Shown piece by piece: positions 11,780-61,326 of a stretch of DNA of 64,000 bases (positions are counted from its first letter, which is position 1; every line of letters starts with the position of its first letter). The stretch is from the NCBI GenBank assembly GCA_016934825.1, contig JAFGSB010000158.1:66842-130841 (forward strand), read 5' to 3'. The stretch is from Candidatus Zhuqueibacterota bacterium (GTDB lineage: Bacteria > Zhuqueibacterota > Zhuqueibacteria > Residuimicrobiales > Krinioviventaceae). The translations under genes were made by a program, and so were the position numbers. Under the pieces are notes generated by a model. The model searched no databases and had not been told where the DNA came from. It saw only the letters and a list, made by a program, of their open reading frames with translations.

Positions 11780-11817
11780 ATTTAAAAATTCGGGAGAACA
11801 TTCAATTGTAGAAAATT

Positions 11818-13122: not shown

Positions 13123-13154
13123 ATTGTTACAAGTCACGAAAGTGAAAAGGAAAA

Positions 13155-33940: not shown

Positions 33941-34031
33941 AACATGCTGATTAATAGAAAAACAGTAGGTTGATTGAAAAGGGCGCCCCGATTCTTTCGA
34001 CCTTTTTTTTTGTTTATTTCGTTTGTTAATT

Positions 34032-36419: not shown

Positions 36420-36424
36420 TTTAT

Positions 36425-36608: not shown

Positions 36609-36625
36609 TTTATAAGGATATTTTT

Positions 36626-37357: not shown

Positions 37358-37385
37358 AATTTTCTCATAAAAGTGAAAGGACGCA

Positions 37386-38276: not shown

Positions 38277-38290
38277 TAATCGGATAGAAT

Positions 38291-39145: not shown

Positions 39146-39174
39146 GGTCAACAATATAAACGGAAAGGTCACGA

Positions 39175-40404: not shown

Positions 40405-40422
40405 TCTATAAAGGAAATTTTT

Positions 40423-41835: not shown

Positions 41836-42033
41836 AGCCTGACACCAGTGTCCGGTAAACCCCGGACGCGACACTCTTAACATATTTATATATTAACGTA
41901 TTCTGATATAATATCATTTATTGATTTGTTTGAGAAAAATAAATTTTTATAATTATTTAACCTGATTTTATTTAAATTGTAAGCCGTATCAGGGAGCAGT
42001 GTCCGTGAACCGGACACCAGTGTTAGCCTGAGT
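41836..42033 (+). repeat. About 190-bp hairpin-terminated intergenic repeat, copy B
   Basis: 5' AGCCTGACACCAGTGTCCGGTAAACCCCGGACGCGACACTCTTAACATATT ... 3' CCGTATCAGGGAGCAGTGTCCGTGAACCGGACACCAGTGTTAGCCTGA. Confidence 0.7.
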
Positions 42034-45743: not shown

Positions 45744-47786
45744 TTGTTACCCGTAGTAACAACAATTGAAACAAAGTGTAAACGCTGTTATTCCTGTATA
45801 CGGAATTGTCCGGCAAAGGCGATAAAAGTCGAAAAAGGCCAGGCAATGGTCATAACCGAACGATGTATTGCCTGCGGTTATTGCGTCAAAGTGTGCCCGC
45901 AGAACGCCAAAAAAATACGTGATGATATTTTTCCCACCCTGAATTTATTATCTTCTAAAAGTCGAACAGTCGCCGTATTGGCGCCGTCTTTCCCGGCAGC
46001 TTTCCCGGATCTGGAACCCGGGAAAATTTTAACCGCGATACGGAAACTTGGATTCAGCCGCGTATATGACGTGGCGTATGGCGCTGATTTGATCAGTAAA
46101 GAATACAGGGAGTTATTGGACTCCAATATTATGCCGTTTATTATTTCCTCCCCCTGTCCCGCAGTTGTTAATTATATTGAAAAATACTATCCCATTTTGA
46201 CAATGTGTCTGGCCCCGATTGTATCTCCCATGATCGCTATCGGCAGGTACATCAGCAAATATATTAATCCTGATGCGTTTATTGTTTTTATCGGTCCCTG
46301 CATTGCAAAAAAGAAAGAAATGGGCGACCCGAAAGTCACAGATGTAATAAATCAGGTTTTGACTTTTGATGAATTGAAAGAGCTGTTTACGAAAAAAAAT
46401 ATACAACCCGGCAACGAATTACCGGGTGAATTTGACGGTCCGAATGCCCACCGCGGAAAACTGTTCCCGGTTTCCGGGGGATTGTTAAAAAGCGCCGAAT
46501 TAAATTATGATATTACGGATAATGATATCATTGTCACCGAGGGTAGGGATCGCGTTCTGGAGATTTTACAGAAAGCTTCCGAAGGTCAAATTGAGGCTAA
46601 GTTTTTGGACCTGCTTTTTTGTGAAGGATGTATCAACGGCCCGAAAATTGACAATAACCTTTCGGTGTTTGTAAAAAAAGACAAGGTGATTAATTATATT
46701 AACAGCCGGGTTGAAGAGGAAAAAGAATTTACCCTGGAAAATTTCGATTTAAGCGGGCTGGATCTTGGACGTAAATTTACCAATGAATATAAGGACGAGA
46801 AAATTCCGGATGAAAACGAAATAAAAGCAATACTGCAACTTACCGGAAAAAGTAATCCTGAAGATGAACTGAATTGCGGGGCCTGTGGTTATATATCCTG
46901 CCGTGAGAAAGCGATTGCCGTTTACCAGGGACTGGCCGAGGCTGAAATGTGCCTGCCCTATATGCTGGACAGACTGGAAAAAGTCCAAAATGAGCTGCAA
47001 AAGTCCAATATAGAACTAAAAGAATCCCTGGATACCCTGAAAAAGACCCAACAACAGCTTATTCAATCGGAAAGGCTGGCTTCAATTGGAGAATTGGCCG
47101 CGGGAGTGGCTCATGAATTGAACAATCCGTTAGGGGGAGTGCTAATTTTCAGCAGTCTGTTACTAGAACGAAAAAACATCAGCGATCCGGAATACAGGGA
47201 TTTGAAAAAAATTATTGAAGAGACCGAGCGCTGCAGGAAAATTGTGCACGGATTGTTGGACTTTTCCCGACAGTCCCGTTTGCAGGCCGCTATCGCCGAT
47301 CTAAACAAGATATTAATCAGCACCCTGACCCTGATTGAAAATCAGGTCCTGTTCCAAAATATAAAAATTGTCAGGGAACTGAATCCGGATATCCACAAAG
47401 TATTTGTTGATGTCGGCCAGATTCAGCAGATAGTATTAAATATTATTTTCAACGCGGCTGAAGCGATGGACGGAAAAGGTACGCTAATTGTAAAAACCGG
47501 TTTTTCCCCGGACAAAAAATTTGTACTTGCCAGCTTTAAAGATACCGGAACCGGAATATCGGCGGAACTGCTAAATAAAATTTTTGATCCTTTTTTTACG
47601 ACCAAACCCCCCGGCAAAGGTACAGGATTGGGCCTGTCAATATCTTACGGTATCATAAAAAAACACAAAGGCGATATTATTGTTGACAGCAAGCCGGGGA
47701 AAGGGACCACATTCACAATCAAATTGCCTTCCGCCCTGGTCATGCAGGATACATACCAATTGAATAATAAAATTGTACAAAAATAA
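45744..47786 (+). CDS. Sensory [FeFe]-hydrogenase-like (HydS-type H-cluster domain with two N-terminal 4Fe-4S clusters) fused to a histidine kinase
   Basis: 2x CxxCxxCxxxCP ferredoxin motifs; H-cluster motifs SSPCPAV (L1 variant), [10 protein letters not shown] (L2) and FCEGCINGP (L3). A coiled-coil is followed by the HisKA H-box [12 protein letters not shown] and HATPase_c N/G boxes (GTGLGLSI). TTG start. Confidence 0.8.
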
Positions 47787-47903
47787 AGTTCAATTTGTCA
47801 GTCATGTTTATGGATAAAAAATGGAATAGTTTATAACAGGATTCAATATCACATGCGTCCGGATAACGGACATCAAATATCCTGTATTCATAAAAGGATG
47901 ACA

Positions 47904-48245
47904 TCGATGGTATTGGAAACAATAGCAAAAAAGCTGTCATTAAAACCATTATATGAAAATATGAAAATCGATATCGAGATAAATGGTATTATTGCATCGG
48001 ATATTTTAAGCGATGTTATGGCAAGAGCGCAAAAAGGTGACTTGTGGATAACAAACCAAACCCATGTTAACGTTATTGCGATTATTTTTTTCAAAGGATT
48101 ATGCGGCGCCATTTTACCGGGCGGCCGGGAACTCGACAATGACGCTGCTGAAAAGGCCATTGAAAAAGGAATACCTGTTTTTATGTCCGACTTGTCCGCA
48201 TTCGATCTGGCGGGTCAGATCTACGGTATGGGTATCAGAGAATAA
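47904..48245 (+). CDS. DRTGG-domain-like small protein
   Basis: About 113 aa from the internal Met; fold-family similarity to DRTGG proteins that accompany sensory hydrogenases. Weak call. Confidence 0.4.
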   Translation, partial: SMVLETIAKKLSLKPLYENMKIDIEINGIIASDILSDVMARAQKGDLWITNQTHVNVIAIIFFKGLCGAILPGGRELDNDAAEKAIEKGIPVFMSDLSAFDLAGQIYGMGIRE

Positions 48246-48832
48246 AAAAAAATGAAAAAAATTTCACTTTTTTGAAAAAAAGACTTGCACATTTTATTTC
48301 GTTTGTTTATAATTAAATAAAGTTGTGAAAAAAAGTACAGCTTTTGTTTATTATCATACGGAACCGATTTTCTATACATCTACAGTGAGGGTCCTGACCT
48401 GCCTCCCCGATATTACGGCCCACTACTCTTGAGACGATACCAGGATATTGAATTAAACAATACCTTTGAGTTGTCTTTATTATGCTACGAGGATTGGGAC
48501 GGTGTTTACGTATATGAGTACGATCCGGAAAATGGTAAAGGAATGTTTTTCTATTTATTGTGATATTATAGCCGCTAATCACCGACTTTTTTTGAATAGG
48601 GATTACAAGTTATAACTTCAACAAGCAGAATAAAACCGGATTGATCGATTTCATTGTAAAATCCACAAGATTGCCCAATCAAATTTACTAAAATTTTTTT
48701 CAATCAGAAAATTTTTTGACATTGTTTTTGTTGATTTTGAAAATTTTAATGATGCATTAATTCATCATGTGTCCATGTTGAAGCGATTGTCATATTTAAG
48801 ATTTTGTATTGAAATTCGATGGAGGTGAAGTA

Positions 48833-49861
48833 ATGATTATCAAAGTGGACGAATTTATTGCGTTTTTATATAAATGTCAGGATAAGGGATTTTCCGGTTT
48901 TGATCAAATTATTTTACCCGTCAGGTCCGGGAATAAAGATTCGGATTCGTTTTATTTTGCGCAATTATCAAAATCAAAAGAATTTGATATAGACTCCTAC
49001 CGGACCGTCGATCCATTAAAAATGTTTTTCTTTCTTCCCCGTGAAAAAATTCTGCCGCAAACATTTGATAATACAAAACGCTTGATCGTCGGCGCAAAAG
49101 GTTGTGATATCAGGGCGCTGAAAGTGCTTGACAAGGCCATGATTAATGAAGATTTTGTCGATCCCGCTTATTTTTATTGGCGGCAAAATACCACAATCAT
49201 TAGCGCGGATTGTACCGACATTGCCCCGACCTGTCATTGTAATCTGGTAGACGGACATCCTTATGCCGAAGCTAATTTTGATCTGAATCTTTCCCGCTAT
49301 AAAGATGTTTATGTCGTCACATCGGGAAGTGAAAAGGGCGAGGAATTGCTGGAATTATTAAAAAAGGAATGTAAAGTTGAACCCGGGTCCCCAGAAATTT
49401 CTGCCAATATTCAGGAGCAAAGAAATAAAATAATCCGGTTATTGGAAAAACAAAATGAACAATACGAGAGAAATAATGAATTTGAAAAATTAAAACAAAA
49501 CCCGATGGATAATTGGTCAGATGAATCCAAAACATGTATCGGGTGCGGCGCCTGTACGAATATCTGCCCGACCTGTTATTGTCTTATTTTAAATGATGAA
49601 ACAAAAGCGGAAGAATTTGTCAAGGTCAGGAGCATGGATTCCTGCCAGTTAAACGGATATGCCCGCGTTGCCGGCGGAAGCACGCCCCGGCCTAAAATGT
49701 TCCAGAGATTTCGTAATCGTTATTTATGTAAATTTCTATTTATGAAAAGTAATTTTGATATGTTGGGCTGCACGGGGTGCGGAAGGTGTACGGAAGCATG
49801 CGCGGCCCAAATTGATTTTCGTCAGGTAGTCAATTCTGTTTTGAACGCGGTTGTCGATTGA
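48833..49861 (+). CDS. AsrA/HydB-like iron-sulfur subunit (anaerobic sulfite reductase A / sulfhydrogenase beta family)
   Basis: C-terminal CIGCGACTNICPTCYC and CTGCGRCTEAC clusters; typical length. Confidence 0.65.
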   Translation: MIIKVDEFIAFLYKCQDKGFSGFDQIILPVRSGNKDSDSFYFAQLSKSKEFDIDSYRTVDPLKMFFFLPREKILPQTFDNTKRLIVGAKGCDIRALKVLDKAMINEDFVDPAYFYWRQNTTIISADCTDIAPTCHCNLVDGHPYAEANFDLNLSRYKDVYVVTSGSEKGEELLELLKKECKVEPGSPEISANIQEQRNKIIRLLEKQNEQYERNNEFEKLKQNPMDNWSDESKTCIGCGACTNICPTCYCLILNDETKAEEFVKVRSMDSCQLNGYARVAGGSTPRPKMFQRFRNRYLCKFLFMKSNFDMLGCTGCGRCTEACAAQIDFRQVVNSVLNAVVD

Positions 49862-49875
49862 AAATAGATATGTAT

Positions 49876-50062
49876 AGCACTAGTGTCCGGTTAAACCCGG
49901 ACACGACATTCGTAACATATTATTTTATTAACGTTTTTGGATATGATTTCATTAATTGATATGGTTGAATAAAATTAAATTTTTCCAATTTTTAGCTTGA
50001 TTTTATTGAACTTGTAAACCGGATCAGGCAGCGGTGTCCGTTAACCGGACATCAGTGATGTT
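49876..50062 (+). repeat. About 190-bp hairpin-terminated intergenic repeat, copy C (inside the hydrogenase operon)
   Basis: 5' GCACTAGTGTCCGGTTAAACCCGGACACGACATTCGTAACATATTA ... 3' CCGGATCAGGCAGCGGTGTCCGTTAACCGGACATCAGTGATGTT. Confidence 0.7.
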
Positions 50063-50095
50063 ATAGTAGAATTTTTGAGGTAACAGGAGAAGATT

Positions 50096-50917
50096 ATGAA
50101 TAACCCGTATGAGGTCGTACCTGCCACGATATATGAAATTATTCAGGAATCTCCGTTAATTCGCACGTTACGTGTTCAACCGGAGAAACCCATACCGTTT
50201 AAAACCGGACAATTTATTGAACTGACCATACCCGGCATTGGCGAGGGTCCGTTTACTCCTTCATCATCACATTTCATCAGCGAAAATATGGATATTACCA
50301 TCATGAAAACCGGTTTTGTGACGGAATATGTTCACAGAGCTAAAGTCGGCGACAAAGTGGGTTTGAGGGGACCCTACGGTTCGCATTATCCGCTCGAAAA
50401 ATTCAAGGGTAAGGACCTTTTGATACTTGGCGGCGGCTGCGGACTCGCGCCGTTACGATCACTTTTTACGACCCTGCTGCATGAAGTGGAAGATTATAAC
50501 AGCATTACATTTTTCGCGGGAGCTAAAACGCCAAAGGATTGTATCTACAAGGATTCGGTGACGGATTGGAGAAAATATGACAATGTCACGTTTATGCGCA
50601 GTGTCGATGTTGTTCCCGATGGCGAAGAGTGGGACGAGGAAGTTGGGCTGGTTACTTCGCTGTTATCCAAACTGGATATTGATACGGCTGTAAATCCGGC
50701 GGTGGTTTGCGGACCGCCTGTTATGATGAAGTTTGGTACAATGGATTTGATCAAATGCGGTTTCCGGGAAGAAAATATATATCTGTCGATGGAAAAGAAA
50801 ATGTACTGCGGTTTCGGCCAATGCCGGCATTGCGTGATGGGCGAGTTTTATGCCTGCAAAGACGGCCCCGTGTTTACTTATGCCCGGATAAAGAATGAGG
50901 AGGATATTTGGGAATGA
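50096..50917 (+). CDS. AsrB/HydG-like FAD/NAD(P)-binding oxidoreductase subunit with C-terminal [2Fe-2S]
   Basis: FNR-like fold (GQFIEL, LILGGGCGLAPLRS) and CGFGQCRHCVMGEFYAC cluster as in PyrK/AsrB/sulfhydrogenase gamma. Confidence 0.8.
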   Translation: MNNPYEVVPATIYEIIQESPLIRTLRVQPEKPIPFKTGQFIELTIPGIGEGPFTPSSSHFISENMDITIMKTGFVTEYVHRAKVGDKVGLRGPYGSHYPLEKFKGKDLLILGGGCGLAPLRSLFTTLLHEVEDYNSITFFAGAKTPKDCIYKDSVTDWRKYDNVTFMRSVDVVPDGEEWDEEVGLVTSLLSKLDIDTAVNPAVVCGPPVMMKFGTMDLIKCGFREENIYLSMEKKMYCGFGQCRHCVMGEFYACKDGPVFTYARIKNEEDIWE

Positions 50918-51417
50918 AAAAACTTTTTATTGATGTTCCGGCCCTGATCAATTCCGGCGCAGCAGTCGATCAAATTAAATGCGAATATCTTTTTCACAGA
51001 AAAAATAACGGCGCTTTTTCCCTGCTGGAGGTGGCGCAATTTGCTTCATATTGCCGGCAGTGTACGGAATCGTTCTGCGTCTCGGCATGCCCGGTGGAAG
51101 CCCTGGAACGGCAGGAAACCGGAACCATCAAACGGCATAATATGCGATGTGTGGGGTGCAAAAGTTGTGTACTGGCCTGCCCGTTCGGAACGATTTTCCC
51201 CGAGGTCATTAATTATGTGACCTGTCAGTGCGATTTGTGTTTGAATCAGTTGGAGCAGGATCCTGACTATGTTCCGCTGTGTGTGAAAACCGCACCCGCT
51301 CAAACCTTTGCGATGAAAGAGTTAACGGAAGAAGACCCGCAGCAGCATATCTATTTTTCGGGTAAGCATCTGGCAATTAAAAGTCCGAACTGGCGGCACA
51401 AGGAGGGCAAGTCATGA
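50908..51417 (+). CDS. 4Fe-4S dicluster electron-transfer subunit (HycB/HyfA-like)
   Basis: CRQCTESFCVSACP and CVGCKSCVLACP plus a CDLC motif. Confidence 0.7.
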   Translation: MGMKKLFIDVPALINSGAAVDQIKCEYLFHRKNNGAFSLLEVAQFASYCRQCTESFCVSACPVEALERQETGTIKRHNMRCVGCKSCVLACPFGTIFPEVINYVTCQCDLCLNQLEQDPDYVPLCVKTAPAQTFAMKELTEEDPQQHIYFSGKHLAIKSPNWRHKEGKS

Positions 51418-52343
51418 ACATAGAATATGTGTTTTTCCTGCTCATTTTTCCCGGTCTGTTATTTACCGGTATTTTGGGACTGACCGTCGGCTGGGTTGAC
51501 CGGAAGGTCTCCGCGCGGTTCCAGTTTCGTGTCGGTCCGCCCTTTTTACAGAATTTTAATGATTTTTTCAAATTGCTTGGCAAAGAAACGATCATCGTCA
51601 AAGAAGGAGTACATTCATTATTTATTGCGGCTCCTTTTATCGCTTTTGCCGTGATCGTTCTGATTTCAACCATGATCGGCGTCGCTTTGTTCTTCAATAA
51701 AGGCTTCGGCGGCGACCTGTTTGTGATCATGTATTTGTTAATGGTTTATTCCGTTATGATCATATTAGGCGGATCGTCTACAGGAAACGTTTATTCCAGC
51801 ATTGGCGCCGCAAGAGAAATGAAACTGTTGCTGGCCGATGAACTGGCTTTTATATTTGTGTGTATGGTGCCCGTCGTTAAAGCGGATTACCAGTTGAGTC
51901 TTGAACAGATTTTGAACTGGCAAAGTATTGAAGGCGCTTTTATAGGTTCCGTATCCGGTGTGATCGCCTTTATTGTCGGTATCCTGTGTATCCAGGCAAA
52001 AATGACGCTGCCGCCGTTCCATATCCCGGAAGCGGAAACGGAACTCGTAGAGGGGCCATTTATGGAATACAGCGGGCCGCCGCTGGCTTTCTGGAAATTA
52101 AACCATTTTATGCTGTATGTTGTCCTGCCCTTTTTACTGGTGCTGTTATTTCTGGGCGGTTTCAATCTGCACGGTCTGGGTATACTTTGGGCCGTTTTAA
52201 AATATTTTTTGATTGTCGTGGTTATGATCATTATAAAAAATACCAATCCGAGGATCAGGATTGATACGGCATTAAATTTTTTCTGGAAATACGCCGCGCT
52301 GTTGGGTTTTATAGCTTTAATCTTAGCCGTGTTAGGAGTTTAA
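51414..52343 (+). CDS. Group 4 hydrogenase membrane subunit (NuoH/HycD/EchB family)
   Basis: 309-aa 8-TM protein with complex-I subunit-1 family signature regions. Confidence 0.75.
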   Translation: MNIEYVFFLLIFPGLLFTGILGLTVGWVDRKVSARFQFRVGPPFLQNFNDFFKLLGKETIIVKEGVHSLFIAAPFIAFAVIVLISTMIGVALFFNKGFGGDLFVIMYLLMVYSVMIILGGSSTGNVYSSIGAAREMKLLLADELAFIFVCMVPVVKADYQLSLEQILNWQSIEGAFIGSVSGVIAFIVGILCIQAKMTLPPFHIPEAETELVEGPFMEYSGPPLAFWKLNHFMLYVVLPFLLVLLFLGGFNLHGLGILWAVLKYFLIVVVMIIIKNTNPRIRIDTALNFFWKYAALLGFIALILAVLGV

Positions 52344-52344
52344 T

Positions 52345-52764
52345 ATGGGATGGTATAATAAAAGACTGGCAAAATCAATATGGGTGTTTCATCTAAGTGC
52401 GTCCCCGTGTAATAATTGTGATATCGAAATACTGGACCTGCTCACACCAAAATATGATCTGGAACGGTTCGGGATCAAGCTCGTGGGTTCTGTCAGGCAC
52501 GCGGATGTGATCCTGTTGAGCGGTATCATCAATCAAAAAGTCGCCCCCAAAGTTACACATTTATATTCGCAGGCGCCGAAACCTGTTTTTGTCGTCGGCG
52601 TGGGAACATGTCCTGCCGGCGGCTGTTGCTTTAACGACAGCTACAATAAAGTGCCCTGCCGAGAGGACGTCATTCCCATTGATATGTATATACCCGGTTG
52701 TCCGCCCAAACCGGAAGCCATGATCGAGGGCGTTGTAAAACTTGTGGAGGTTCTGAATGGATAA
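52345..52764 (+). CDS. [NiFe] hydrogenase small subunit (NuoB/HycG/EchC family)
   Basis: Cys ligands for the proximal cluster: CNNCD, GTCPAGGCCF and GCPPKPEA. Confidence 0.85.
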   Translation: MGWYNKRLAKSIWVFHLSASPCNNCDIEILDLLTPKYDLERFGIKLVGSVRHADVILLSGIINQKVAPKVTHLYSQAPKPVFVVGVGTCPAGGCCFNDSYNKVPCREDVIPIDMYIPGCPPKPEAMIEGVVKLVEVLNG

Positions 52765-53188
52765 AACCAAAGAATTCATCGAGGCTATGGGTGATAAAAT
52801 ATATAAAAAGATCGAGAAAAAAGGCCGCCTTTATTTCGAGGTGGATAATGAAAATTTACATACCGTGGTAGAGTATTTATTTCATAAAATGGGGTGCCGG
52901 TTATCCACGGCAACGGCGATGGAAATGTATCACGGCATAGAGGTGCTGTATCATTTTTCACACGACGAATCCGGCCAGTACTTTTGTCCGCGTATGGTCA
53001 TGACCGATCTGAAAAATCCGAAAATGAAATCGATTACGCCCATCATCAAAGGCGCGGAGTGGATTGAAAGGGAAATGTGTGAATTTTGGGGCATCGAATT
53101 TGAGGGCCATCCGCGTCCGGAACGGCTGCTGTCCAGAGAGCACCCCCAACAACTTGACAAACCATTACGATTCAGGAGGAATTCATGA
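52757..53188 (+). CDS. NuoC/EchD-like 30-kDa subunit
   Basis: NuoC-family fold; positioned between the NuoB-like and NuoD-like genes. Confidence 0.7.
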   Translation: MDKTKEFIEAMGDKIYKKIEKKGRLYFEVDNENLHTVVEYLFHKMGCRLSTATAMEMYHGIEVLYHFSHDESGQYFCPRMVMTDLKNPKMKSITPIIKGAEWIEREMCEFWGIEFEGHPRPERLLSREHPQQLDKPLRFRRNS

Positions 53189-54372
53189 ACAAGAATACCA
53201 TACCGGTTGGCCCATTCCATCCGTTGCTCGAAGAAGCCGAATATTTTAACCTGGTCGTTGATGGCGAAACCGTCGTTGATATTGATATTGATATCGGCTG
53301 GATGCACAGAGGGCACGAGTTTATCTCGGAACAAAAAACGTTTACCCAGTCCATTTATCTGGTGGAACGGATCTGCGGTATCTGTTCCACGTCACACCCG
53401 CTGGCATGCGTGCACGCGATAGAGGATGTCGATAATACCGAAATCCCATTGCGGGCGCGATATATCCGCACACTGATCGGAGAACTGGAACGCATTCACA
53501 GTCATCTGCTCTGGCTTGGCCTGGCAGGGCATTTTATCGGTTACGATACCCTGTGGATGTGGTCCTGGAAATACAGGGAGCCGGTTCTGCAAATGTTTGA
53601 GCTCATTTCCGGCAACCGCAATCATTACAACATGTTGAGAGTCGGGGGCGTCTCGAGGGATGTGGATCCAGAAAAAATTCCCGGCCTGACAGATGTATTG
53701 GATATGCTCGACAAAAAACTGATCATGATCGCCAAGGCCGCCAATGATGACCCGGTCCTCAGATCGCGATTGAAAGGAGTCGGCGTTTTAACCCATAAAG
53801 ACGCCCTCGATTATTGCGCTGTGGGTCCGACTTCCCGGGCATCCGGAGTCCCGGCGGATGTGCGCAAGTCCGAGGATATAGACGCATACAGCTTGGTCGA
53901 TTTTGATGTCATTGTGCTGGAAAACGGCGATGTCTATGATAAACTAATTGTCCGCGTGCTGGAAATGCTGGAATCCACAAAAATTTGCCGTCAATGTCTG
54001 GAAAAATTAAAAAAGGTAAAAGGTCCGATATTAAACAATGTGAAGAATATATCTGCAGGAGAAGGCATCGGCCGGTATGAAGCGCCGCGCGGCGAAGTGT
54101 TTCATTATGTACGGACCGACGGCACAAACAGGCCAATCCGGCACAAGGTTCGGGCCCCCAGCTATGTCAATATTCCCACTTACGCGGCGTCATGTGTGGG
54201 TCTGCCGATTGCCGATGTGCTCATCACAACTGCATCGGTCGATCCATGTTATTGTTGTACCGAACGCTCCCTGAAGGTCGTCAATAAAAATAAACAACCG
54301 TATCAAATAGACTTATTAAAGTTGTCCCGCGAAAAGACCGAACGGATCAGGAGGGAAACATATGGAGGTTAA
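53185..54372 (+). CDS. Group 4 [NiFe] hydrogenase large (catalytic) subunit (NuoD/EchE/MbhL-like)
   Basis: N-terminal RICGICSTSH (L1 CxxC) and C-terminal DPCYCCTER (L2 DPCxxCxxR) Ni-Fe ligand motifs. Confidence 0.85.
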   Translation: MNKNTIPVGPFHPLLEEAEYFNLVVDGETVVDIDIDIGWMHRGHEFISEQKTFTQSIYLVERICGICSTSHPLACVHAIEDVDNTEIPLRARYIRTLIGELERIHSHLLWLGLAGHFIGYDTLWMWSWKYREPVLQMFELISGNRNHYNMLRVGGVSRDVDPEKIPGLTDVLDMLDKKLIMIAKAANDDPVLRSRLKGVGVLTHKDALDYCAVGPTSRASGVPADVRKSEDIDAYSLVDFDVIVLENGDVYDKLIVRVLEMLESTKICRQCLEKLKKVKGPILNNVKNISAGEGIGRYEAPRGEVFHYVRTDGTNRPIRHKVRAPSYVNIPTYAASCVGLPIADVLITTASVDPCYCCTERSLKVVNKNKQPYQIDLLKLSREKTERIRRETYGG

Positions 54373-56182
54373 TGTTGTGCTGATTTATCTGGCCGCAATC
54401 CCCTTTGTGATTGCATTGTTGAATATTTTATTGCCGCCCGTTATGCAAAAAATTCTTACCCTGTTGGGTTTAATATATCTACTGCGGCTAACGGTACTCC
54501 TGTATTCCGGCGTGGCGGAAAATTTTATTTTGTTCGGGGAGACAGTATTTTCTGTTGACCGGTTGGGTCTGTTTGTGTTTACTTTTATCCAGGTTTTGAG
54601 TTTTATTATTTTCATATTTTCACTGCAGGGTCTGGATAAAAGAATCGAAAAAAAGTTTCTTATATTATATCCCATGACCGTTTCATTTTGCAACGGCGTC
54701 GTTTTGAGCGAACACGTCTTTAGTTTTTTGATTTTTTGGGGATTGTCGGGTCTGGCGCTGTATTTATTTTGCATGCTTGGGCTGACAAAAGGAACGCCGC
54801 AAACGGCAAAGAAAACTTTTATTTTAATCGGCGGGAGCGATGCTTTTTTAATTTTAGGAATGGTCAGTATCTGGTTTTTGAAACCGGGATCAAGCTGGTC
54901 GTTAATCGATCTGCACATACCGTTAACCGGTGAACTTTCTGTTGTCGCGTTTATCTGCCTGGTAATCGCTGCGTTTGCCAAAGCCGGGGGATTTCCGTTC
55001 CATACATGGGTTCCCGATTTCAGCCAGGACGCGCCCATTGAAAGTGCGGCATTCCTGCCGGCATCTTTGGATAAATTACTCGGCATTTATCTTTTGGCCC
55101 GGATAATGACGCAATTATTTGAGGTAACGGTCACCGTGAACCTTGTCATCATTACTCTTGGCGCGATGACGGTTATTTTTGCCGTCATGATGGCCATGAT
55201 ACAACACAGCGGCAGAAAACTGTTAGGGTACCACGCGGTCAGCCAGGTGGGGTATATGATCATGGGCGTCGGCAGCGGCGGCGCACTGGCGTTCGCGGGC
55301 GGGTTGTTCCATATGATCAATCATACAATTTATAAATCCAATCTGTTTTTAACGCTCGGCTCCGTGGAAAAACAGACCGGCACAAGCGACCTGGAGAACC
55401 TGGGCGGTCTGGGTAAAAAAATGCCGGTCACATTTATAATGGCCATGATCGGCGCGTTCGCCATATCCGGTATTCCACCGTTTAACGGATTTTTCTCCAA
55501 GTGGATGATTTATCAGGGTTTGCTTGAACTGGCCGGAAGTATGAGCAAGGTCCAGCAGGTATGGCTGCTTGTCTGTTTGATCCTGGCGGTTTTCGGCAGC
55601 GCGCTTACCCTGGCAAGTTTTTTGAAATTTTTACATTCGATCTATCTGGGAAAACGGCCTGCAAAGTATGATCATATAAAAGAAACAAAGCCCAATCAGT
55701 GGCTCTCAACCGGTTTGCTTTCCGCGCTATGTGTTGTATTTGGTTTGTTTGCGGTCAGTATTCCGTTAAAACGACTGATTTATCCCGTTACCATGGAATT
55801 GGGATATCCTTTACCCGACTTTTTGGGTGATTATAATCCGCAGTTGTTATTCCTGATGTTTGCCCTTGCATTTATTGCGGGATTCATTATTTACCTGTTT
55901 ACTAAAAATGTTCGTTACGACCAGAATTATCTCGGAGGTATGCCGGCCCTGGAAAAGTACAGGGTTGCCGGTACCGAATTTTATAATGAGATCCGCAACA
56001 TGAAACCTTTAAAAGCGATTTTCGACGCCGCCGGGAAAAAATATTTTGATATATATGATCTGGGAACCCGGTTTACTTTTTCGGTTTCCGGGCTCTTTCA
56101 ACGCGGCCATCCGGGACAGTTGCAGTTATATCTTTTATATATAATGGCGGGCGTTTTAATATTTATTTTGCTTGTTCATTAA
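54362..56182 (+). CDS. Antiporter-like membrane subunit (NuoL/MrpA/HyfB family)
   Basis: 606 aa, about 16 TM, proton-pumping complex-I ND5-family core. Confidence 0.8.
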   Translation: MEVNVVLIYLAAIPFVIALLNILLPPVMQKILTLLGLIYLLRLTVLLYSGVAENFILFGETVFSVDRLGLFVFTFIQVLSFIIFIFSLQGLDKRIEKKFLILYPMTVSFCNGVVLSEHVFSFLIFWGLSGLALYLFCMLGLTKGTPQTAKKTFILIGGSDAFLILGMVSIWFLKPGSSWSLIDLHIPLTGELSVVAFICLVIAAFAKAGGFPFHTWVPDFSQDAPIESAAFLPASLDKLLGIYLLARIMTQLFEVTVTVNLVIITLGAMTVIFAVMMAMIQHSGRKLLGYHAVSQVGYMIMGVGSGGALAFAGGLFHMINHTIYKSNLFLTLGSVEKQTGTSDLENLGGLGKKMPVTFIMAMIGAFAISGIPPFNGFFSKWMIYQGLLELAGSMSKVQQVWLLVCLILAVFGSALTLASFLKFLHSIYLGKRPAKYDHIKETKPNQWLSTGLLSALCVVFGLFAVSIPLKRLIYPVTMELGYPLPDFLGDYNPQLLFLMFALAFIAGFIIYLFTKNVRYDQNYLGGMPALEKYRVAGTEFYNEIRNMKPLKAIFDAAGKKYFDIYDLGTRFTFSVSGLFQRGHPGQLQLYLLYIMAGVLIFILLVH

Positions 56183-56216
56183 TTATAGATTCAATACGAA
56201 TAGAGCGGAGGAAATA

Positions 56217-56759
56217 ATGCCAATAGAAACCTGGTTAACGTTTGTTCTCGGGTTTATGATAATCGGATCGATCGTCGCGCTGGAATTGAAGGATATTTTG
56301 TCTTCGATCATCTCAATCGGGGTTGTCGGACTTGGGGTATCGGTCGCTTTTCTTTTTCTTCAGGCCCCGGATTTGGCGATTGTACAGTTCTTATTTGAGA
56401 TATTTGCGATTATCATTCTGGTCAAAGTCTTTATTAAAAAAGATTATCACTATGAAGAACCGTCAAGAATAAACAAAATGCTAATCGGTGTGACCGTTAT
56501 TACACTTGCCGTCATATTTATTTTCAGTATATCCGTGTTTAAAAATATACCGCCTTTTGGCGAGCCTTTACTGCATACGTCGAAATATTATCTTGAAAAT
56601 GGCGCCGGTGATACGGGAGCGGCAAACCTGGTCAGTTCCATTATTCTTGATTACAGGGCTTATGATACACTTGGAGAAGTAACGGTGTTATTTACCGCTA
56701 TTCTGGGTTCTGTAACGGTTCTACGATTGAGTATCCGAAAAAATAAAAATAAGGAATAA
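56217..56759 (+). CDS. MrpB/MnhB-like antiporter subunit
   Basis: VSSIILDYRAYDTLGE matches the MnhB motif. Confidence 0.7.
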   Translation: MPIETWLTFVLGFMIIGSIVALELKDILSSIISIGVVGLGVSVAFLFLQAPDLAIVQFLFEIFAIIILVKVFIKKDYHYEEPSRINKMLIGVTVITLAVIFIFSISVFKNIPPFGEPLLHTSKYYLENGAGDTGAANLVSSIILDYRAYDTLGEVTVLFTAILGSVTVLRLSIRKNKNKE

Positions 56760-56761
56760 AA

Positions 56762-57211
56762 ATGAAACGGCAGACAGGTATGACTTTGATTGTCAAAACC
56801 ATAACGCGGCTAACGGTATGGTTAATTATTCTTTACGGTTTTTATATTATCTTGCACGGCCATTTAACCCCCGGCGGCGGATTTGGCGGCGGCGTTATCA
56901 TTGCGCTGGCTTTTCTGAATGTATTGCTGGCATACGGACGTGAATTTACAGACAAATGGTTAAAGATTTCATTCCTGGAAAAGCTCGAGTCTTTAAGTAT
57001 TATCCTCTTTTTACTATTAGGGATAACGGCGCTATTGGCCGGTAAATTGTTCCTGGAAAATTTTATCGGTAAAGGGCATTTATATCATTTGTTGAGCGCC
57101 GGCACGATACCCGTTTTTAATATAATTATCGGAATTAAAGTGGCCATGTCTTTATTTCTGGTTATCTGGATTCTGTCCGGTTTGAAATTGGAGGAAGGAG
57201 AGGAGGCATGA
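56762..57211 (+). CDS. MnhB-domain membrane subunit (MbhE-like)
   Basis: HLTPGGGFGGGVIIA motif typical of MnhB-domain proteins. Confidence 0.6.
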   Translation: MKRQTGMTLIVKTITRLTVWLIILYGFYIILHGHLTPGGGFGGGVIIALAFLNVLLAYGREFTDKWLKISFLEKLESLSIILFLLLGITALLAGKLFLENFIGKGHLYHLLSAGTIPVFNIIIGIKVAMSLFLVIWILSGLKLEEGEEA

Positions 57212-57543
57212 TTATTTATCTTTTGTGTTTTGTACTTTTTCTGGTCGGGATTTATGGCGTTATAACCAAAAGGGACCTGGTCAAGATCATCCTTTCGCTC
57301 GCCATTATGGGATATTCGGCCAATCTTTTTTTAATTTTGTTCGCCTATAAAAAATCGGCGTTATATCCCATTTTGGAAAAAGGGGTGGACGTCCCGATGG
57401 TCGATCCGCTGCCGCAGGCCCTTGTTCTGACTTCGATTGTTATTGAATTGGGTACTACAGCCCTGCTTGTTTCCCTTGTTGCTAAGTTGTTTCAAAAATA
57501 CAGGACATTTGACATTACTAAAATAAGGAGGCTGTTAGGATGA
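57208..57543 (+). CDS. MrpC/NuoK-like subunit
   Basis: 111 aa, 3 TM, NuoK-like. Confidence 0.7.
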   Translation: MIIYLLCFVLFLVGIYGVITKRDLVKIILSLAIMGYSANLFLILFAYKKSALYPILEKGVDVPMVDPLPQALVLTSIVIELGTTALLVSLVAKLFQKYRTFDITKIRRLLG

Positions 57544-59015
57544 TCCTCCCATTTTATATCATTATACCTTTATTTACGGCATTTCTCATTTCGTTGATCG
57601 GCGGTAAAAAAGATTATGCGGCTGTGATTTTTTCCGTAATATCTGTTTTTTCGCTGGTTTGTCTGTCATTATATGGTTTTTTTATCGGCGGCCGGCAAAT
57701 CCTGGTGTACAGGATGAGCGCATGGGATATCCCTGTCGGCATAAATCTGGTTCAGGACTCTTTGTCATCATTTGTACTGGTTATGATCAGCATCATTTCA
57801 TTAACCTCGGTCCTGTTTTCAATCCAGTATATCCGGCATTTATCCCAAGATTGGAAATACTATGCTCTATTTATGCTGTTGTTGTCCGGTATGAACGGTG
57901 TCGTGCTGACCGGCGACCTGTTCAATCTGTTTGTTTTTATGGAGATCGCCCTGATAGCGGCTTTTTCCCTTGTCGCTTATGGCGGCAGGGCGGAGGAGTA
58001 TGAAGCGGCTTTTAAATATGCCGTGATGGGTTCCGTCTCATCAACGTTGATACTGGTCGGAATTGCGGTAACTTATTGCTCGACATCGACATTAACGCTG
58101 GCGCTCATCGCCGAACGATTACCCGCGCTAAATACCAAAGTCGTTTACTGGATCGGCGGTCTTTTTATGGCAGGTTTCGGACTTAAAACCGCGGCCATGC
58201 CGTTTCACGCCTGGCTCCCGGACGCGCATTCTTCCGCACCGGCTCCGATATCTTCCATGCTTTCCGGTGTGCTGATTAAGGCGCTTGGAATTTATGTTTT
58301 GATACGAATTTTCTTTAACGTGTTGGGCGCGCCGGAATTATTTATGCGTATTTTTATGGTGCTCGGGACTGTTTCCATCATAATCGGCGTTTTCCTGGCC
58401 ATCGGTCAATGGGATATGAAAAGACTGCTGGCGTATCACAGTATCAGCCAGATCGGTTATATATTACTGGGCCTGGGACTGGCAACGCCGCTTGGCATAT
58501 TGGGCGCAATATTTCATATGTTCAATCACGCTATATTTAAAGGATTATTGTTTTATAATGCCGGCGCTGTTGAAATGGCCCTCGGAACGCGTAATTTAAA
58601 GAACCTGGGAAATATTTCAAAATTACTGCCGGTCACATCCGGCACGTCAATGATCGCGTCATTGTCCATTTCCGGGATTCCGCCTTTTAACGGATTTTTC
58701 AGTAAACTTATTATTATCATTGCTGCGATTAAATCCGGGCATCCTGTATACGCATTTCTGGCCGTTGTGGGAAGTATTCTGACACTGGCTTCATTTATGA
58801 AGGTGCAAAGATACGGCTTTCATGGCGACAGGGTGATTGAAACAAAGCAAACCAATGTTGGCCTGGCCATGAATGGGGCAATGATCACGCTTGCCGTATT
58901 ATGTCTGGTAACCAGTTTGATGATCGTGCCCGGTATAAAGGAGAGTATTTTAGACCCGGTCATTGCGGTCATTTTGAATAAAACCCAATACATTCAAATG
59001 GTTATGGGGAGGTGA
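57540..59015 (+). CDS. MrpD/NuoM-N-like antiporter subunit
   Basis: 491-aa ND2/4 family core, including the WLPDAH motif. Confidence 0.8.
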   Translation: MILPFYIIIPLFTAFLISLIGGKKDYAAVIFSVISVFSLVCLSLYGFFIGGRQILVYRMSAWDIPVGINLVQDSLSSFVLVMISIISLTSVLFSIQYIRHLSQDWKYYALFMLLLSGMNGVVLTGDLFNLFVFMEIALIAAFSLVAYGGRAEEYEAAFKYAVMGSVSSTLILVGIAVTYCSTSTLTLALIAERLPALNTKVVYWIGGLFMAGFGLKTAAMPFHAWLPDAHSSAPAPISSMLSGVLIKALGIYVLIRIFFNVLGAPELFMRIFMVLGTVSIIIGVFLAIGQWDMKRLLAYHSISQIGYILLGLGLATPLGILGAIFHMFNHAIFKGLLFYNAGAVEMALGTRNLKNLGNISKLLPVTSGTSMIASLSISGIPPFNGFFSKLIIIIAAIKSGHPVYAFLAVVGSILTLASFMKVQRYGFHGDRVIETKQTNVGLAMNGAMITLAVLCLVTSLMIVPGIKESILDPVIAVILNKTQYIQMVMGR

Positions 59016-59524
59016 CGATGAAAATAGAAATGAAAAGCAGGATCGTCGTTTTTGTTTTGGCTTATTTGGTCTGGCTGGCTCTGACACATATCGGGGATAT
59101 CCAGGAAGTCATTGCGGGATTTATCATCTCGATTGTGGTTGCCCTGATTGCCGGTAAATTTTTTATTACCACAAAAAAACAAAAAGGGACCGTACGCCGG
59201 ATTATTGCGGCCGTAATATATATATTCAAATTCCTCTGGGAAATGATCAAAGCCAATTTTCACGTTGCCTATATTGTGATACACCCGATGTTACCGATTA
59301 AACCCGGGATCGTCAAGATCAGGACTAGATTAAGTAAAGACTCCGCGATCACTATACTGACAAATTCAATCACCCTGACGCCCGGCACATTAACCGTTGA
59401 TTTAAATCCTGATAAAAAAGAGATATACGTTCACTGTATAGATGTTATATCTGCCGATGTGGAAGAAAATACACGGAATATCGGTAACAGGTTTGAAAGT
59501 ATTTTAACGGAGGTTTTCGAATGA
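59012..59524 (+). CDS. MrpE/MnhE-like subunit
   Basis: Size, topology and position in the Mrp module. Confidence 0.65.
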   Translation: MTMKIEMKSRIVVFVLAYLVWLALTHIGDIQEVIAGFIISIVVALIAGKFFITTKKQKGTVRRIIAAVIYIFKFLWEMIKANFHVAYIVIHPMLPIKPGIVKIRTRLSKDSAITILTNSITLTPGTLTVDLNPDKKEIYVHCIDVISADVEENTRNIGNRFESILTEVFE

Positions 59525-59859
59525 AACTGTTAAAATGGTTTTTAGGATTCATTTTTATAGCCGCATTTATATATTACAATTTTTTTATATATGATGGAAA
59601 ATTACTTTTCAGGCTCATAAATATAAGTCTTTTTTGTTCGTTGTTTGTACTGTTCAGGGTCATATTCGGCCCGACAGCGGCCGACAGAATCGTTGCGGTT
59701 GATATTTTGGGTATATTGATTGTGGGTTTGCTGGCGTTATTGGGCTTGTATTACAAACAGGGATTTTTTATGGATGTCGCTTTAATCTGGGCGTTGTTAA
59801 GCTTTGTCGCATCACTTGCCTTTTCAAAGATTCTGGAAGGGAGGCAGTTAGATGATTAA
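59521..59859 (+). CDS. MrpF/MnhF-like subunit
   Basis: 112 aa, 3 TM. Confidence 0.6.
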   Translation: MKLLKWFLGFIFIAAFIYYNFFIYDGKLLFRLINISLFCSLFVLFRVIFGPTAADRIVAVDILGILIVGLLALLGLYYKQGFFMDVALIWALLSFVASLAFSKILEGRQLDD

Positions 59860-60193
59860 GGAAACGATTGGTATGATATTTATATATATCGGCATCGGGT
59901 TTGATTTTTTCGGTGTCCTGGGCCTGGTGCGTTTACCGGATGTGTATAACCGGCTGCAGGCGGCGACGAAATGCGTAACGTTCGGTTCCGCCGGTATTAT
60001 GTTCGGCGTTTTTATTTTAAACGGATTTAACAGTTTTGGATTTAAAGCGTTGCTGGGTATCGCTTTTATATTTCTGACGTCCCCGGTCGCGGCGCATGTC
60101 ATTGCCCGGGCCGCGCATCGCAGCGGCGTACCGCTGGCAAAACAAACGGTCGTCGATGATTATGCTAAAGATAACGATTTAAAAGATTTATAA
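59852..60193 (+). CDS. MrpG/MnhG-like subunit
   Basis: GIGFDFFGVLGLVRLPDVYNRLQAATK is the canonical MnhG motif. Confidence 0.8.
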   Translation: MIKETIGMIFIYIGIGFDFFGVLGLVRLPDVYNRLQAATKCVTFGSAGIMFGVFILNGFNSFGFKALLGIAFIFLTSPVAAHVIARAAHRSGVPLAKQTVVDDYAKDNDLKDL

Positions 60194-60254
60194 TTATCTG
60201 CCGGAATTCAGTACATATGTACTGCCAAAGACAGAGAATTTATGGAGGCTTGTT

Positions 60255-60857
60255 ATGTATCTGCCGAAGATACGGGAAATAAAAGAAGCATTGACATCAT
60301 TTTTTACACCGCCTTATACAACCGGATTTCCGGCCGAGCCTTATACGGCGCCGGAACAATACCGGGGCAGGCCGAAATACGATCAGGAGTTTTGCATCGG
60401 CTGCGGAACCTGCGCGCAGGTGTGTCCCACTCAGGCTATCACTATAACTGATAACCCGGAGAAAAAAACTCGTACATTGACTGTCGATTATTGTTTATGC
60501 ATGAATTGCGGACAATGTGAAGAAAAATGTATTACCCAAAAGGGGATTCATTTAACGAATGATTATTCTTTGGCAATTATGGACAAAAATGATCCGAATG
60601 TGTATGAATCGATTGAACGTGAACTGGTTTTATGTGAAAGCTGCGGCGGGGTTATCGCATGCAGACCGCATCTTTTGTGGATCAAGGAGCGGCTTGGCGC
60701 CAAAGCTTACGCTCATCCGAATTTACTGCTGGAAACTCAAAAGCAGTTTTTTCAGGTCGAGGATTCCAAAGTTAAAGCCAGAATACGGCGCGAGGATCAA
60801 ATAAAACAAGTCTGTCCCAAATGCCGGAATTTAATTGTAGTGGCCGATGAATTTTAA
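60255..60857 (+). CDS. 2x[4Fe-4S] ferredoxin subunit (NuoI/MbhN-like)
   Basis: CIGCGTCAQVCP and CMNCGQCEEKC motifs. Confidence 0.7.
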   Translation: MYLPKIREIKEALTSFFTPPYTTGFPAEPYTAPEQYRGRPKYDQEFCIGCGTCAQVCPTQAITITDNPEKKTRTLTVDYCLCMNCGQCEEKCITQKGIHLTNDYSLAIMDKNDPNVYESIERELVLCESCGGVIACRPHLLWIKERLGAKAYAHPNLLLETQKQFFQVEDSKVKARIRREDQIKQVCPKCRNLIVVADEF

Positions 60858-61326
60858 ACAGTTTTCACAAGAGTTGGCGTGCTATAAACCCGAAGAAATT
60901 ATATTTGTCGGACTGGGTAACGAACTGTGCGGCGATGATGCGGCCGGCCTTATATTTATTGATAAACTCAAAGATGTACCGGATTTTACCGGTTCCATTT
61001 TTATCACCGCCCGGACAAATCCGGAAAATTTTTTACAAAAGATACTCGACTCAACCGGTAAAGTTATTGTTTTTATAGATGCCGCCCAATTTAACGGAAA
61101 ACGCGGAGAAATATCTTGGATCGATGCCGATAATCTGGAACTATTGAGTATCAGTACACATGCATATTCATTGAGAATGGTGGAGCAGTATTTATTAAAC
61201 TACCGTCACTTTGATTTTAAATACCTGGGGATCGATTCGCTGCACATGAATTTGGGTGATCAGTTATCTTCACAAGTATTAACCAAAATAGCCGTTTTTT
61301 TTGCTCATGTCAGGAACTGCAATTAA
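60847..61326 (+). CDS. hycI: [NiFe] hydrogenase maturation endopeptidase (HycI/HyaD family)
   Basis: FVGLGNELCGDDAAGL N-terminal metal-binding motif of hydrogenase maturation proteases. Confidence 0.7.
   Translation: MNFKQFSQELACYKPEEIIFVGLGNELCGDDAAGLIFIDKLKDVPDFTGSIFITARTNPENFLQKILDSTGKVIVFIDAAQFNGKRGEISWIDADNLELLSISTHAYSLRMVEQYLLNYRHFDFKYLGIDSLHMNLGDQLSSQVLTKIAVFFAHVRNCN

Follow-up and report, generated by a model that had tools for sequence, protein, structure and literature searches.

What is the redox partner of a membrane-bound [NiFe]-hydrogenase whose operon opens with homologs of the beta and gamma subunits of a soluble sulfhydrogenase? The question is raised by an operon (Table 1) in a 64,000-nucleotide stretch of DNA, referred to here as the window, which covers positions 66,842 to 130,841 of contig JAFGSB010000158.1 (assembly GCA_016934825.1) from a Candidatus Zhuqueibacterota bacterium; the hydrogenase large subunit encoded there is 100% identical to an NCBI protein labelled "candidate division KSB1 bacterium". 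The gene array is far beyond what chance would produce, and its order is repeated in more than 40 other genomes. The best explanation of these genes, which form an intact operon, is that they encode a single modular energy-converting [NiFe]-hydrogenase complex, which would exchange electrons reversibly between NAD(P)H and H+, would couple this to Na+/H+ translocation and would be workable only at low H2. This reading, taken as a whole, is one that we hold about as firmly as we doubt it.

The operon and its hydrogenase core

Open reading frame (ORF) listing and Pfam searches placed 17 consecutive ORFs on the + strand between 48809/48833 and 61326, one more than the 16 genes counted in an earlier note on this DNA; the families which that note had named (AsrA/HydB-, AsrB/HydG-, HycB-, NuoH/B/C/D-, NuoL-, Mrp-, NuoI- and HycI-like) were all borne out by Pfam. 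The first gene very probably starts at the ATG at 48833, which has GGAGGTG ahead of it, the TTG at 48809 being merely the head of the longest ORF. Overlaps of 4–11 nt, given earlier for most junctions, are found at 12 of the 16 (two of these count only if the longest-ORF TTG is taken as the true start), but the beta/gamma junction is a 234-nt gap and the MrpG/NuoI junction a 61-nt gap. The gamma-, HycB- and NuoH-like genes overlap by 4–10 nt, which fits co-assembly of their products. The Mrp-like set that follows the 606-aa antiporter gene comprises seven genes (MbhD/E fusion, MnhB, NuoK/MrpC-like, MrpD, MrpE, MrpF and MrpG), and homologs of MrpA (C-terminal part), B, C, D, E, F and G are thereby all present in the same operon. 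An Rfam scan of the region upstream of the operon and of the beta/gamma gap returned nothing at gathering score, and a promoter and terminator scan of 47700–50200 gave counts near shuffle expectation.

Both RICGICSTSH and DPCYCCTER, the large-subunit motifs pointed out in the earlier note, are seen in the translation, and the Ni/Fe cysteines (Cys64, 67, 355 and 358) are 100% conserved across 54 orthologs. A C-terminal extension of 34 aa follows CTER, and all 54 orthologs carry an extension of 28–44 aa. Cys22, 25, 89 and 119 of the small subunit are also 100% conserved, and this protein scores 131.8 bits against the NCBIfam NuoB subfamily NF005012 (cutoff 116). The HycI-type protein scores 67 bits against the hydrogenase maturation protease superfamily TIGR00072, above the cutoff of 47.45, and 69.8 bits against the hycI equivalog, below the cutoff of 119. 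Conservation of the NiFe and small-subunit cysteines, of the C-terminal extension and of the HycI gene indicates that this is a real hydrogenase. The best PDB match of the large subunit is Pyrococcus furiosus MbhL (6cfw_L; 293 bits, E = 4e-86, 43% identity), with Nqo4 (213), HycE (212) and MbsL (158 bits) well behind. By these comparisons the complex is a group 4 (energy-converting, complex-I-related), Mrp-linked [NiFe]-hydrogenase. The hydrogenase subunits of the operon are all of group 4 type, with no group 3b alpha-delta partner dimer among them; no hyp genes were found within the 64-kb window.

Two further iron-sulfur proteins accompany the core. The HycB/CooF-like protein has 12 conserved cysteines, corresponding to about three [4Fe-4S] clusters, and its PDB matches include 9mqx_E (3e-11), 7qv7_B and 7z0s_B (4e-7); it is the putative connector between the beta-gamma pair and the NuoI-like subunit. 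The latter matches HycF (7z0s_F, 1e-18) ahead of MbhN (6cfw_N, 5e-13), and its best NCBIfam match is the iron-sulfur subunit of formate hydrogenlyase (FHL; PRK12387, 95 bits). Four extra cysteines at positions 127, 130, 187 and 190 (CxxC ... CxxC), 100% conserved in 39 orthologs, suggest an additional metal or iron-sulfur site in this protein. In the membrane arm, the 606-aa antiporter-like protein aligns with MbsH' (6u8y_X) over nearly its full length (104–596), and with HycC (7z0s_C) over 137–515. Judged from these homologies, the architecture is that of an FHL-like peripheral arm on a membrane arm of Mbh/Mbs/Mrp type with two antiporter-like subunits, and the predicted cofactors are FAD, one [2Fe-2S], about 9–10 [4Fe-4S] and the NiFe center.

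The P. furiosus membrane-bound hydrogenase (MBH; 6CFW, group 4d), which among solved structures has the large subunit closest to that of the window, has the same NuoB/C/D/H/I-like core and a full MbhA-H/Mrp-type module, but it takes electrons from free ferredoxin at MbhN, is without HycB-like, beta and gamma subunits, and has one antiporter-like subunit rather than two; the solved MbhL also ends at CTDR with no extension, whereas the window operon encodes both the extension and HycI. Escherichia coli FHL-1 (7Z0S, group 4a) shares the HycB-, HycF- and HycC-like proteins, the C-terminal extension and HycI. It differs in that the window operon has no FdhF and carries a sulfhydrogenase-type beta-gamma pair instead, and in that FHL-1 is without a complete Mrp module. 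Two antiporter-like subunits are also found in the P. furiosus membrane-bound sulfane reductase (MBS). The catalytic subunit of MBS has no NiFe site, whereas all four NiFe cysteines are invariant here, and the large subunit scores 158 bits against MbsL as against 293 for MbhL; the 606-aa protein corresponds to MbsH' of the MBS structure (6U8Y).

Table 1. Positions of the operon genes and of the two ORFs upstream, numbered from the first letter of the window.
Feature	Position	Strand	Family match or remark
Sensory [FeFe]-hydrogenase-like histidine kinase, 680 aa	45744..47786	+	Fe_hyd_lg_C 2.5e-50, HisKA 9e-14, HATPase_c 6e-23
130-aa ORF, between kinase and operon	47853..48245	+	weak DRTGG, E 0.0013, 19 bits (below cutoff of 25.2)
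Beta-like subunit (SHI-beta/AsrA-like polyferredoxin)	48833..49861	+	Fer4_22 6e-28; longest ORF from TTG 48809
AT-rich intergenic insert, 234 nt	49862..50095		two REP-like hairpins; outside enzyme
Gamma-like subunit (SHI-gamma/AsrB-like)	50096..50917	+	NAD_binding_1 9e-13, DHODB_Fe-S_bind 3e-8, FAD_binding_6 3e-5
HycB/CooF-like polyferredoxin	50908..51417	+	Fer4_11 5e-11
NuoH/MbhM/HycD-like membrane anchor	51414..52343	+	NADHdh 1.6e-63
Hydrogenase small subunit (NuoB/MbhJ/HycG-like), one [4Fe-4S]	52345..52764	+	Oxidored_q6 1.5e-25
NuoC/MbhK-like subunit	52757..53188	+	Complex1_30kDa 1.9e-20
[NiFe] large subunit (NuoD/MbhL/HycE-like)	53185..54372	+	Complex1_49kDa 2e-66, NiFeSe_Hases 2e-17
606-aa antiporter-like protein (MbsH'/HycC/NuoL-like)	54362..56182	+	Proton_antipo_M 2.6e-47; PRK08668 261 bits (NCBIfam)
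MbhD+MbhE fusion (MrpA C-terminal-like)	56172..56759	+	MbhD 5e-14, MbhE 1e-8
MrpB/MbhG-like	56762..57211	+	MnhB 4e-29
MrpC/NuoK/MbhF-like	57208..57543	+	Oxidored_q2 1.9e-25
MrpD/MbhH-like antiporter, 491 aa	57540..59015	+	Proton_antipo_M 1.8e-63; PRK08376 363 bits (NCBIfam)
MrpE/MbhA-like	59012..59524	+	MNHE 1.3e-43
MrpF/MbhB-like	59521..59859	+	MrpF_PhaF 2.8e-18
MrpG/MbhC-like	59852..60193	+	PhaG_MnhG_YufB 4e-26
NuoI/HycF-like 2x[4Fe-4S] subunit, 200 aa	60255..60857	+	Fer4_7 and related Pfam families
HycI-type maturation endopeptidase	60847..61326	+	HycI 1e-5 (Pfam)

The beta- and gamma-like proteins and their relatives

As proposed earlier, the first two genes encode homologs of the beta and gamma subunits of P. 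furiosus sulfhydrogenase I (SHI; 9NEZ, group 3b), which are their closest solved relatives. The beta-like protein matches 9nez_B with an E value of 1.2e-37, and residues 12–265 of the gamma-like protein match 9nez_C at 2.2e-49, the next PDB matches, NqrF and PyrK, standing at about 1e-14. The cysteine motifs of both proteins are kept in these alignments, as are the FAD and nucleotide motifs, and conservation of motifs and cysteines in the gamma-, beta- and HycB-like proteins is at least 93% across 43–47 orthologs. Beta has 15 invariant cysteines (44 orthologs), sufficient for about three [4Fe-4S] clusters. In gamma, the GGGxGxAPxR motif, the (G)E-x-PFTPSS FAD motif and the [2Fe-2S] cysteines (Cys238, 243, 246 and 254) are 98–100% conserved in 47 orthologs; the NAD(P)-binding site, whose loss would have spoken against the earlier proposal of an NAD(P)H module, is intact and conserved together with the two cofactor sites. 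With its FAD site, its NAD(P)-binding domain and its C-terminal [2Fe-2S], gamma is a putative NAD(P)(H) site. Position 144 is always lysine or arginine, and the aligned residue is an arginine both in SHI gamma and in the NADH-specific NqrF. What sets the window operon apart from SHI is the partner: in the latter, beta and gamma feed a soluble group 3 alpha-delta dimer, whereas here their genes precede a membrane-bound group 4 core.

None of the best-matching NCBIfam equivalogs assigns the pair to a known enzyme. Against beta the scores are 142 bits for HydB (cutoff 750), 158 for ShyB (cutoff 690) and 113 for AsrA (TIGR02910, cutoff 323), and against gamma they are 177 for HydG (cutoff 650), 156 for ShyC (cutoff 600) and 214 for AsrB (TIGR02911, cutoff 288.6). 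Since all fall under their cutoffs, the two proteins form a distinct branch of the superfamily, orthologous to neither enzyme. The Salmonella-type sulfite reductase AsrABC, whose AsrA and AsrB are homologous to these two proteins, differs further in that the window operon has no AsrC. Among the operon proteins, Pfam detected no AsrC, NfnB/GltD-like protein, formate dehydrogenase (Fdh), carbon monoxide dehydrogenase (CODH) or ferredoxin. Two identities were considered and rejected: AsrABC itself (no AsrC, scores under cutoff) and an NfnAB transhydrogenase (no GltD/NfnB-like partner, and a gamma score of 45 bits against NfnA 4ylf_A, compared with 171 against SHI gamma). A formate hydrogenlyase or a formate- or CO-respiring enzyme of group 4a/4b does not fit either, the operon having no molybdopterin or CODH protein.

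The 234-nt gap between beta and gamma (49862–50095) is AT-rich and holds a palindromic hairpin, GTGTCCGGTTAAACCCGGACAC, at 49883–49904 and a degenerate second copy at about 50034–50053, the two bracketing the insert. Related hairpins lie at 36432–36453 and 41848–41869, where none is expected by chance. Because the hairpin has kin elsewhere in the window, and because beta and gamma are only about 20 nt apart in orthologous loci (e.g., L001), the gap is best described from the sequence as a genome-specific insertion resembling repetitive extragenic palindromes (REP), and not as a feature of the system. Within the window, this REP-like family (GTGTCCGGTTAAACCCGGACAC and its variants) is confined to intergenic regions.

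The earlier note considered the arrangement uncommon for Mbh-type enzymes, a view which the relatives do not bear out. Large-subunit homologs of about 80% identity number in the hundreds and are named Ignavibacterium, Ignavibacteriaceae, Marinimicrobia, Fidelibacterota and KSB1; the contigs of two of them have an identical 17-gene order. A scan that took one genome for each GTDB species yielded 60 loci. Compared by tblastn with the 17 proteins of the window, 55 of these encode a large subunit that is 50% identical or more, and for 43 of the 55 the contig reaches 4.4 kb or further upstream. In 42 of the 43, from Ignavibacteria to Saganbacteria, genes for beta-, gamma- and HycB-like proteins come immediately before the core on the same strand, and at the sole exception (L040) the contig ends inside gamma. 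Record titles of the loci name Ignavibacteria, KSB1, Calditrichota, Neomarinimicrobiota, Aminicenantes, Kosmotogaceae/Petrotogales, Aerophobetes, Planctomycetota, Endomicrobia/Elusimicrobia, Fermentibacteria, Krumholzibacteriota, Margulisiibacteriota, WOR-1 (Saganbacteria), Verrucomicrobia, Latescibacteria and Ca. Tritonobacter (Auribacterota). By UniRef name, the cultured Ignavibacterium album has an 82%-identical large subunit.

Two variants of the operon were found. In seven loci (L041, L045–L049 and L056) a molybdopterin-like ORF of 500–600 aa lies between gamma and HycB, and in some others (L024, L028 and L035) a third antiporter-like subunit follows the large subunit. The molybdopterin-like ORF is degenerate and Fdh/NuoG-like, and L041 also has a TPR protein. 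No Fdh-like subunit is present in the window operon or in most of the clade. A neighbor-joining tree rooted on P. furiosus MbhL placed the window sequence among those of the Fibrobacterota-Chlorobiota-Bacteroidota (FCB) group, with the molybdopterin-containing variants in two separate subclades.

The arrangement is also already in the literature (PMC6349859, bioRxiv 10.1101/765248, PMC13582414). An "enigmatic" Saganbacteria group-4/Mrp cluster was described with cooF, asrA, asrB and an unclassifiable molybdopterin oxidoreductase adjoining (PMC6349859), Elusimicrobia were assigned an "Mbh-Mrp-oxidoreductase type" of unknown function (bioRxiv 10.1101/765248), and "group 4b" clusters were reported to hold SHI-gamma/beta homologs with Cys-less Fdh proteins, for which bifurcation was suggested (PMC13582414). 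These asrA/asrB-bearing clusters of Saganbacteria, Elusimicrobia and "group 4b" (L040–L042, L045–L049 and L056) belong to the same large-subunit clade, with 54–57% identity, and keep the beta-gamma-...-HycB-core-Mrp order, but differ in the molybdopterin-like ORF between gamma and HycB, which is absent from the window operon and its FCB-group relatives; the relatives with an Fdh-like gene resemble those classed as 4b in PMC13582414.

HydB/HydG-like partners are, in short, routine in this clade, but the clade is not a well-characterized subgroup: its members are filed as HydDB group 4g, with function unknown or ferredoxin presumed (PMC9324843, PMC11257099, PMC5037454). In HydDB, the members of 4g cluster loosely, their role is given as undetermined and they are labelled "ferredoxin-coupled (putative)" (PMC5037454); the group is a loose collection for which no partner is defined (PMC5037454, PMC13582414). 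The metagenome-assembled genome (MAG) 3300035698_867 of Ca. Tritonobacter lacicola was credited with a group 4g Mbh plus Mrp, with ferredoxin assumed (PMC9324843); this is taken to be the cluster found here at L036, where the large subunit is 59% identical to that of the window and beta, gamma and HycB lie upstream. The Endomicrobium enzyme, also assigned to 4g, was called "uncharacterized, presumably ferredoxin-dependent" (PMC11257099), and Mrp-linked group 4g enzymes of Cloacimonadota and Omnitrophota, which may or may not fall within this clade, were likewise presumed to depend on ferredoxin (PMC8542988). PMC9324843 and PMC11257099 are silent on the beta-gamma genes. The 2012 genome paper on I. 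album discusses [FeFe]-hydrogenases only, with Mbh, Mrp and antiporter unmentioned. The window operon is a further member, this one from KSB1, of the variant without an Fdh-like subunit, in a widespread clade that has been described in part in silico.

The electron donor and its alternatives

FHL-type complexes have as their physiological partner the dehydrogenase encoded in the operon, connected through a HycB/CooF-type protein (PDB 7z0s). By this analogy, the simplest interpretation of the invariant beta-gamma-HycB trio is that it forms the module through which electrons enter or leave. The peripheral arm would be wired as in FHL, from the HycB-like polyferredoxin to the HycF-like, small and large subunits, with the sulfhydrogenase-type pair in the position of the formate dehydrogenase. 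The pair is presumed to be attached to the complex and to use NAD(P)H, so that the reaction would be NAD(P)H + H+ <-> NAD(P)+ + H2 and electrons would run from FAD to [2Fe-2S], along about 9–10 [4Fe-4S] clusters and on to NiFe. Translocation of H+ or Na+, the choice of ion being left between the two, would be coupled at the NuoH/NuoD/NuoB interface and the Mrp module. SHI-beta/gamma homologs beside related group 4 clusters have independently been read as an NADP(H) site (PMC13582414).

By homology to Mbh, electron flow toward NiFe would export ions, and NAD(P)H-driven H2 production would then be feasible only at about 10 Pa H2 or less and with a reduced NAD(P)H pool. The standard potentials are −320 mV for NAD(P)H and −414 mV for H+/H2. 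Calculated from these, the H+/H2 couple would stand at about −270 to −300 mV at some 1–10 Pa H2, and a reduced NADPH pool may be put at about −350 to −370 mV. The remaining span of roughly 50–100 mV, or some 10–20 kJ per H2, would be of the same order as that available to ferredoxin-driven Mbh against 1 bar H2. A scheme in which ion influx drives H2 production from NAD(P)H was also considered and rejected, since by homology to Mbh and complex I flow to the catalytic site would be coupled to ion export and an uphill reaction would reverse.

Several points weigh against the NAD(P)H-linked reading. At standard potentials the reaction is endergonic, and H2 would have to be very low for ions to be pumped outward. 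The presence of two antiporter-like subunits (some relatives have three) suggests an energy span beyond that between NAD(P)H and H+, and would fit ferredoxin better. Published annotations of the clade assume ferredoxin (PMC9324843, PMC11257099), for which the NuoI-like and HycB-like subunits could serve as docking sites. Function cannot be transferred to beta and gamma by family, as the HydB/HydG and AsrA/AsrB cutoffs are missed; Lys/Arg144 does not discriminate NADH from NADPH, as NqrF also has arginine; beta is parted from gamma by the 234-nt insert in the source genome; and no biochemical work on any member of the clade was found in the literature.

The foremost alternative is that ferredoxin is the main donor, at the NuoI-like or HycB-like clusters, and that beta-gamma is an outlet which passes electrons from ferredoxin or H2 to NADP+. 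SHI is usually proposed to recycle H2 into NADPH. The complex would then merge the jobs of the Pyrococcus Mbh and soluble SHI, combining H2 evolution and ion pumping with a supply of NADPH. We regard this as unlikely on balance, yet give it substantial weight because the antiporter-like subunits, two or three in number, are easier to power from ferredoxin, whose span to H+ is the larger at low H2. It is also favored by the ferredoxin-dependent MbhL (6cfw_L, 4e-86) as best solved relative of the large subunit and by the published annotations just cited. It is harder to reconcile with the HycB-like protein, for which Mbh has no requirement and whose strict synteny with a flavoprotein mirrors FHL-type complexes, and with the want of a ferredoxin gene in the operon. 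If ferredoxin electrons travelled through the peripheral arm to NADP+, they would moreover bypass the coupling site.

Electron confurcation or bifurcation, in which proton reduction draws jointly on NAD(P)H and on another low-potential donor (ferredoxin or a substrate not yet named), has been proposed for the relatives with a Cys-less Fdh-like subunit; the same study reports AlphaFold models with a branched iron-sulfur network ending at NiFe, SHI-gamma and the Fdh-like protein (PMC13582414). The seven loci where a molybdopterin-like ORF separates gamma from HycB would suit such a scheme. For the window complex it seems improbable: without an Fdh-like subunit in this operon or most of the clade the third terminus is missing, gamma has its homologs among flavoproteins of the NfnA/PyrK type, which do not bifurcate, the operon encodes no second flavin-binding protein, and a membrane-coupled enzyme has no obvious need of bifurcation.

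There is a similarly small chance that beta, gamma and HycB form a separate soluble oxidoreductase of NAD(P)H:ferredoxin type, merely co-transcribed with a conventional ferredoxin-dependent Mbh-Mrp. The attachment of beta-gamma to the complex is indeed presumed, and the 234-nt insert parts the two genes in the source genome. On the other hand, the trio keeps strict synteny and order over many lineages, gamma, HycB and NuoH overlap, the HycB-like gene is placed between gamma and the membrane anchor genes, and HycB homologs are integral to FHL (7z0s_B). Least probable is that beta-gamma is a module for the reduction of sulfur, polysulfide or sulfite in an H2- or ferredoxin-dependent sulfur reductase: the homology to AsrA/AsrB and to sulfhydrogenase subunits historically tied to S0 reduction is outweighed by the want of AsrC or a siroheme subunit in the operon, by the AsrA and AsrB scores (113 against 323 and 214 against 288.6 bits), by the general view that S0 reduction by SHI is non-physiological, and by the intact NiFe site and HycI, which indicate H+/H2 chemistry.

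Flanking genes and the wider clade

Directly upstream of the operon lies a gene for a histidine kinase with, in addition to HisKA and HATPase_c, two ferredoxin-type [4Fe-4S] domains, an H-domain and a PF04060 iron-sulfur domain. Its translation contains SSPCP, GPCIAKKKE and FCEGCINGP, which we take to be the pattern of sensory (group C) hydrogenases; catalytic [FeFe]-hydrogenases have TSCCP at the SSPCP position. Orthologs with 50–63% identity are found ahead of the operon, at the corresponding position, in L003, L020, L054 and L055, and most other loci are without one. No response regulator adjoins the kinase gene. The kinase is a candidate regulator rather than a structural part of the complex, and H2-responsive control of the operon in the source lineage is a reasonable inference from its domains and position. 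The 130-aa ORF between the kinase gene and the operon has one conserved counterpart, of 50% identity, upstream of the operon in L006, and its association with the operon is uncertain. A 54-aa ORF ahead of beta in L003 was rejected as a part of the system, as it is not conserved in the window.

Elsewhere in the window, the only Rfam match is a lysine riboswitch at 33760–33941 on the + strand (RF00168, 114 bits). Behind it on the same strand, at 34023–41739, is a lysine/diaminopimelate operon encoding an M20 peptidase, an aspartokinase with an ACT domain, DapB, DapA, DapF, an aminotransferase and a LysA-like decarboxylase. A 1566-aa ORF at 27934–32634 (+) joins an AcrB-type RND domain (15–1031) to an ABC-transporter ATPase domain (1297–1440), and is an unusual fusion unless a frameshift has been missed; it is preceded by a second AcrB-type gene (24855–27944), a membrane-fusion protein and an outer-membrane factor. 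At 10400–14420 (+), a CCG-domain/4Fe-4S protein comes after two FAD-linked oxidase-type proteins; together they make up a trio like GlcDEF or lactate dehydrogenase, which appears unrelated to the hydrogenase.

Extended from the window to its relatives, the reading of the complex as an NAD(P)H-linked enzyme becomes more tentative, and we lean somewhat against it. The clade as a whole might be an ion-translocating NAD(P)H:proton oxidoreductase, a complex-I-like pump that gained its NAD(P)H module independently of the NuoEFG N-module and by which fermenters at low H2 dispose of pyridine-nucleotide electrons as H2 with energy conserved, in some lineages under an [FeFe]-hydrogenase-like H2 sensor kinase. 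The acquired module may be the FAD-type SHI beta-gamma pair, at times joined by a degenerate Fdh-like subunit that recalls NuoG. In metagenomic studies the hydrogenase of this clade is routinely modelled as ferredoxin-dependent. If beta-gamma is the real point of electron entry or exit, models of redox balance and energy yield would need revision for Ignavibacteria, KSB1, Calditrichota, Marinimicrobia, Aminicenantes, Elusimicrobia, Saganbacteria and others. The question can be put to the test, because a cultured organism, I. album, carries a close homolog of the large subunit. Were the proposal true, this would be the first membrane-bound, ion-coupled hydrogenase tied to pyridine nucleotides, and an independent evolutionary parallel to the joining of the NADH module to complex I.

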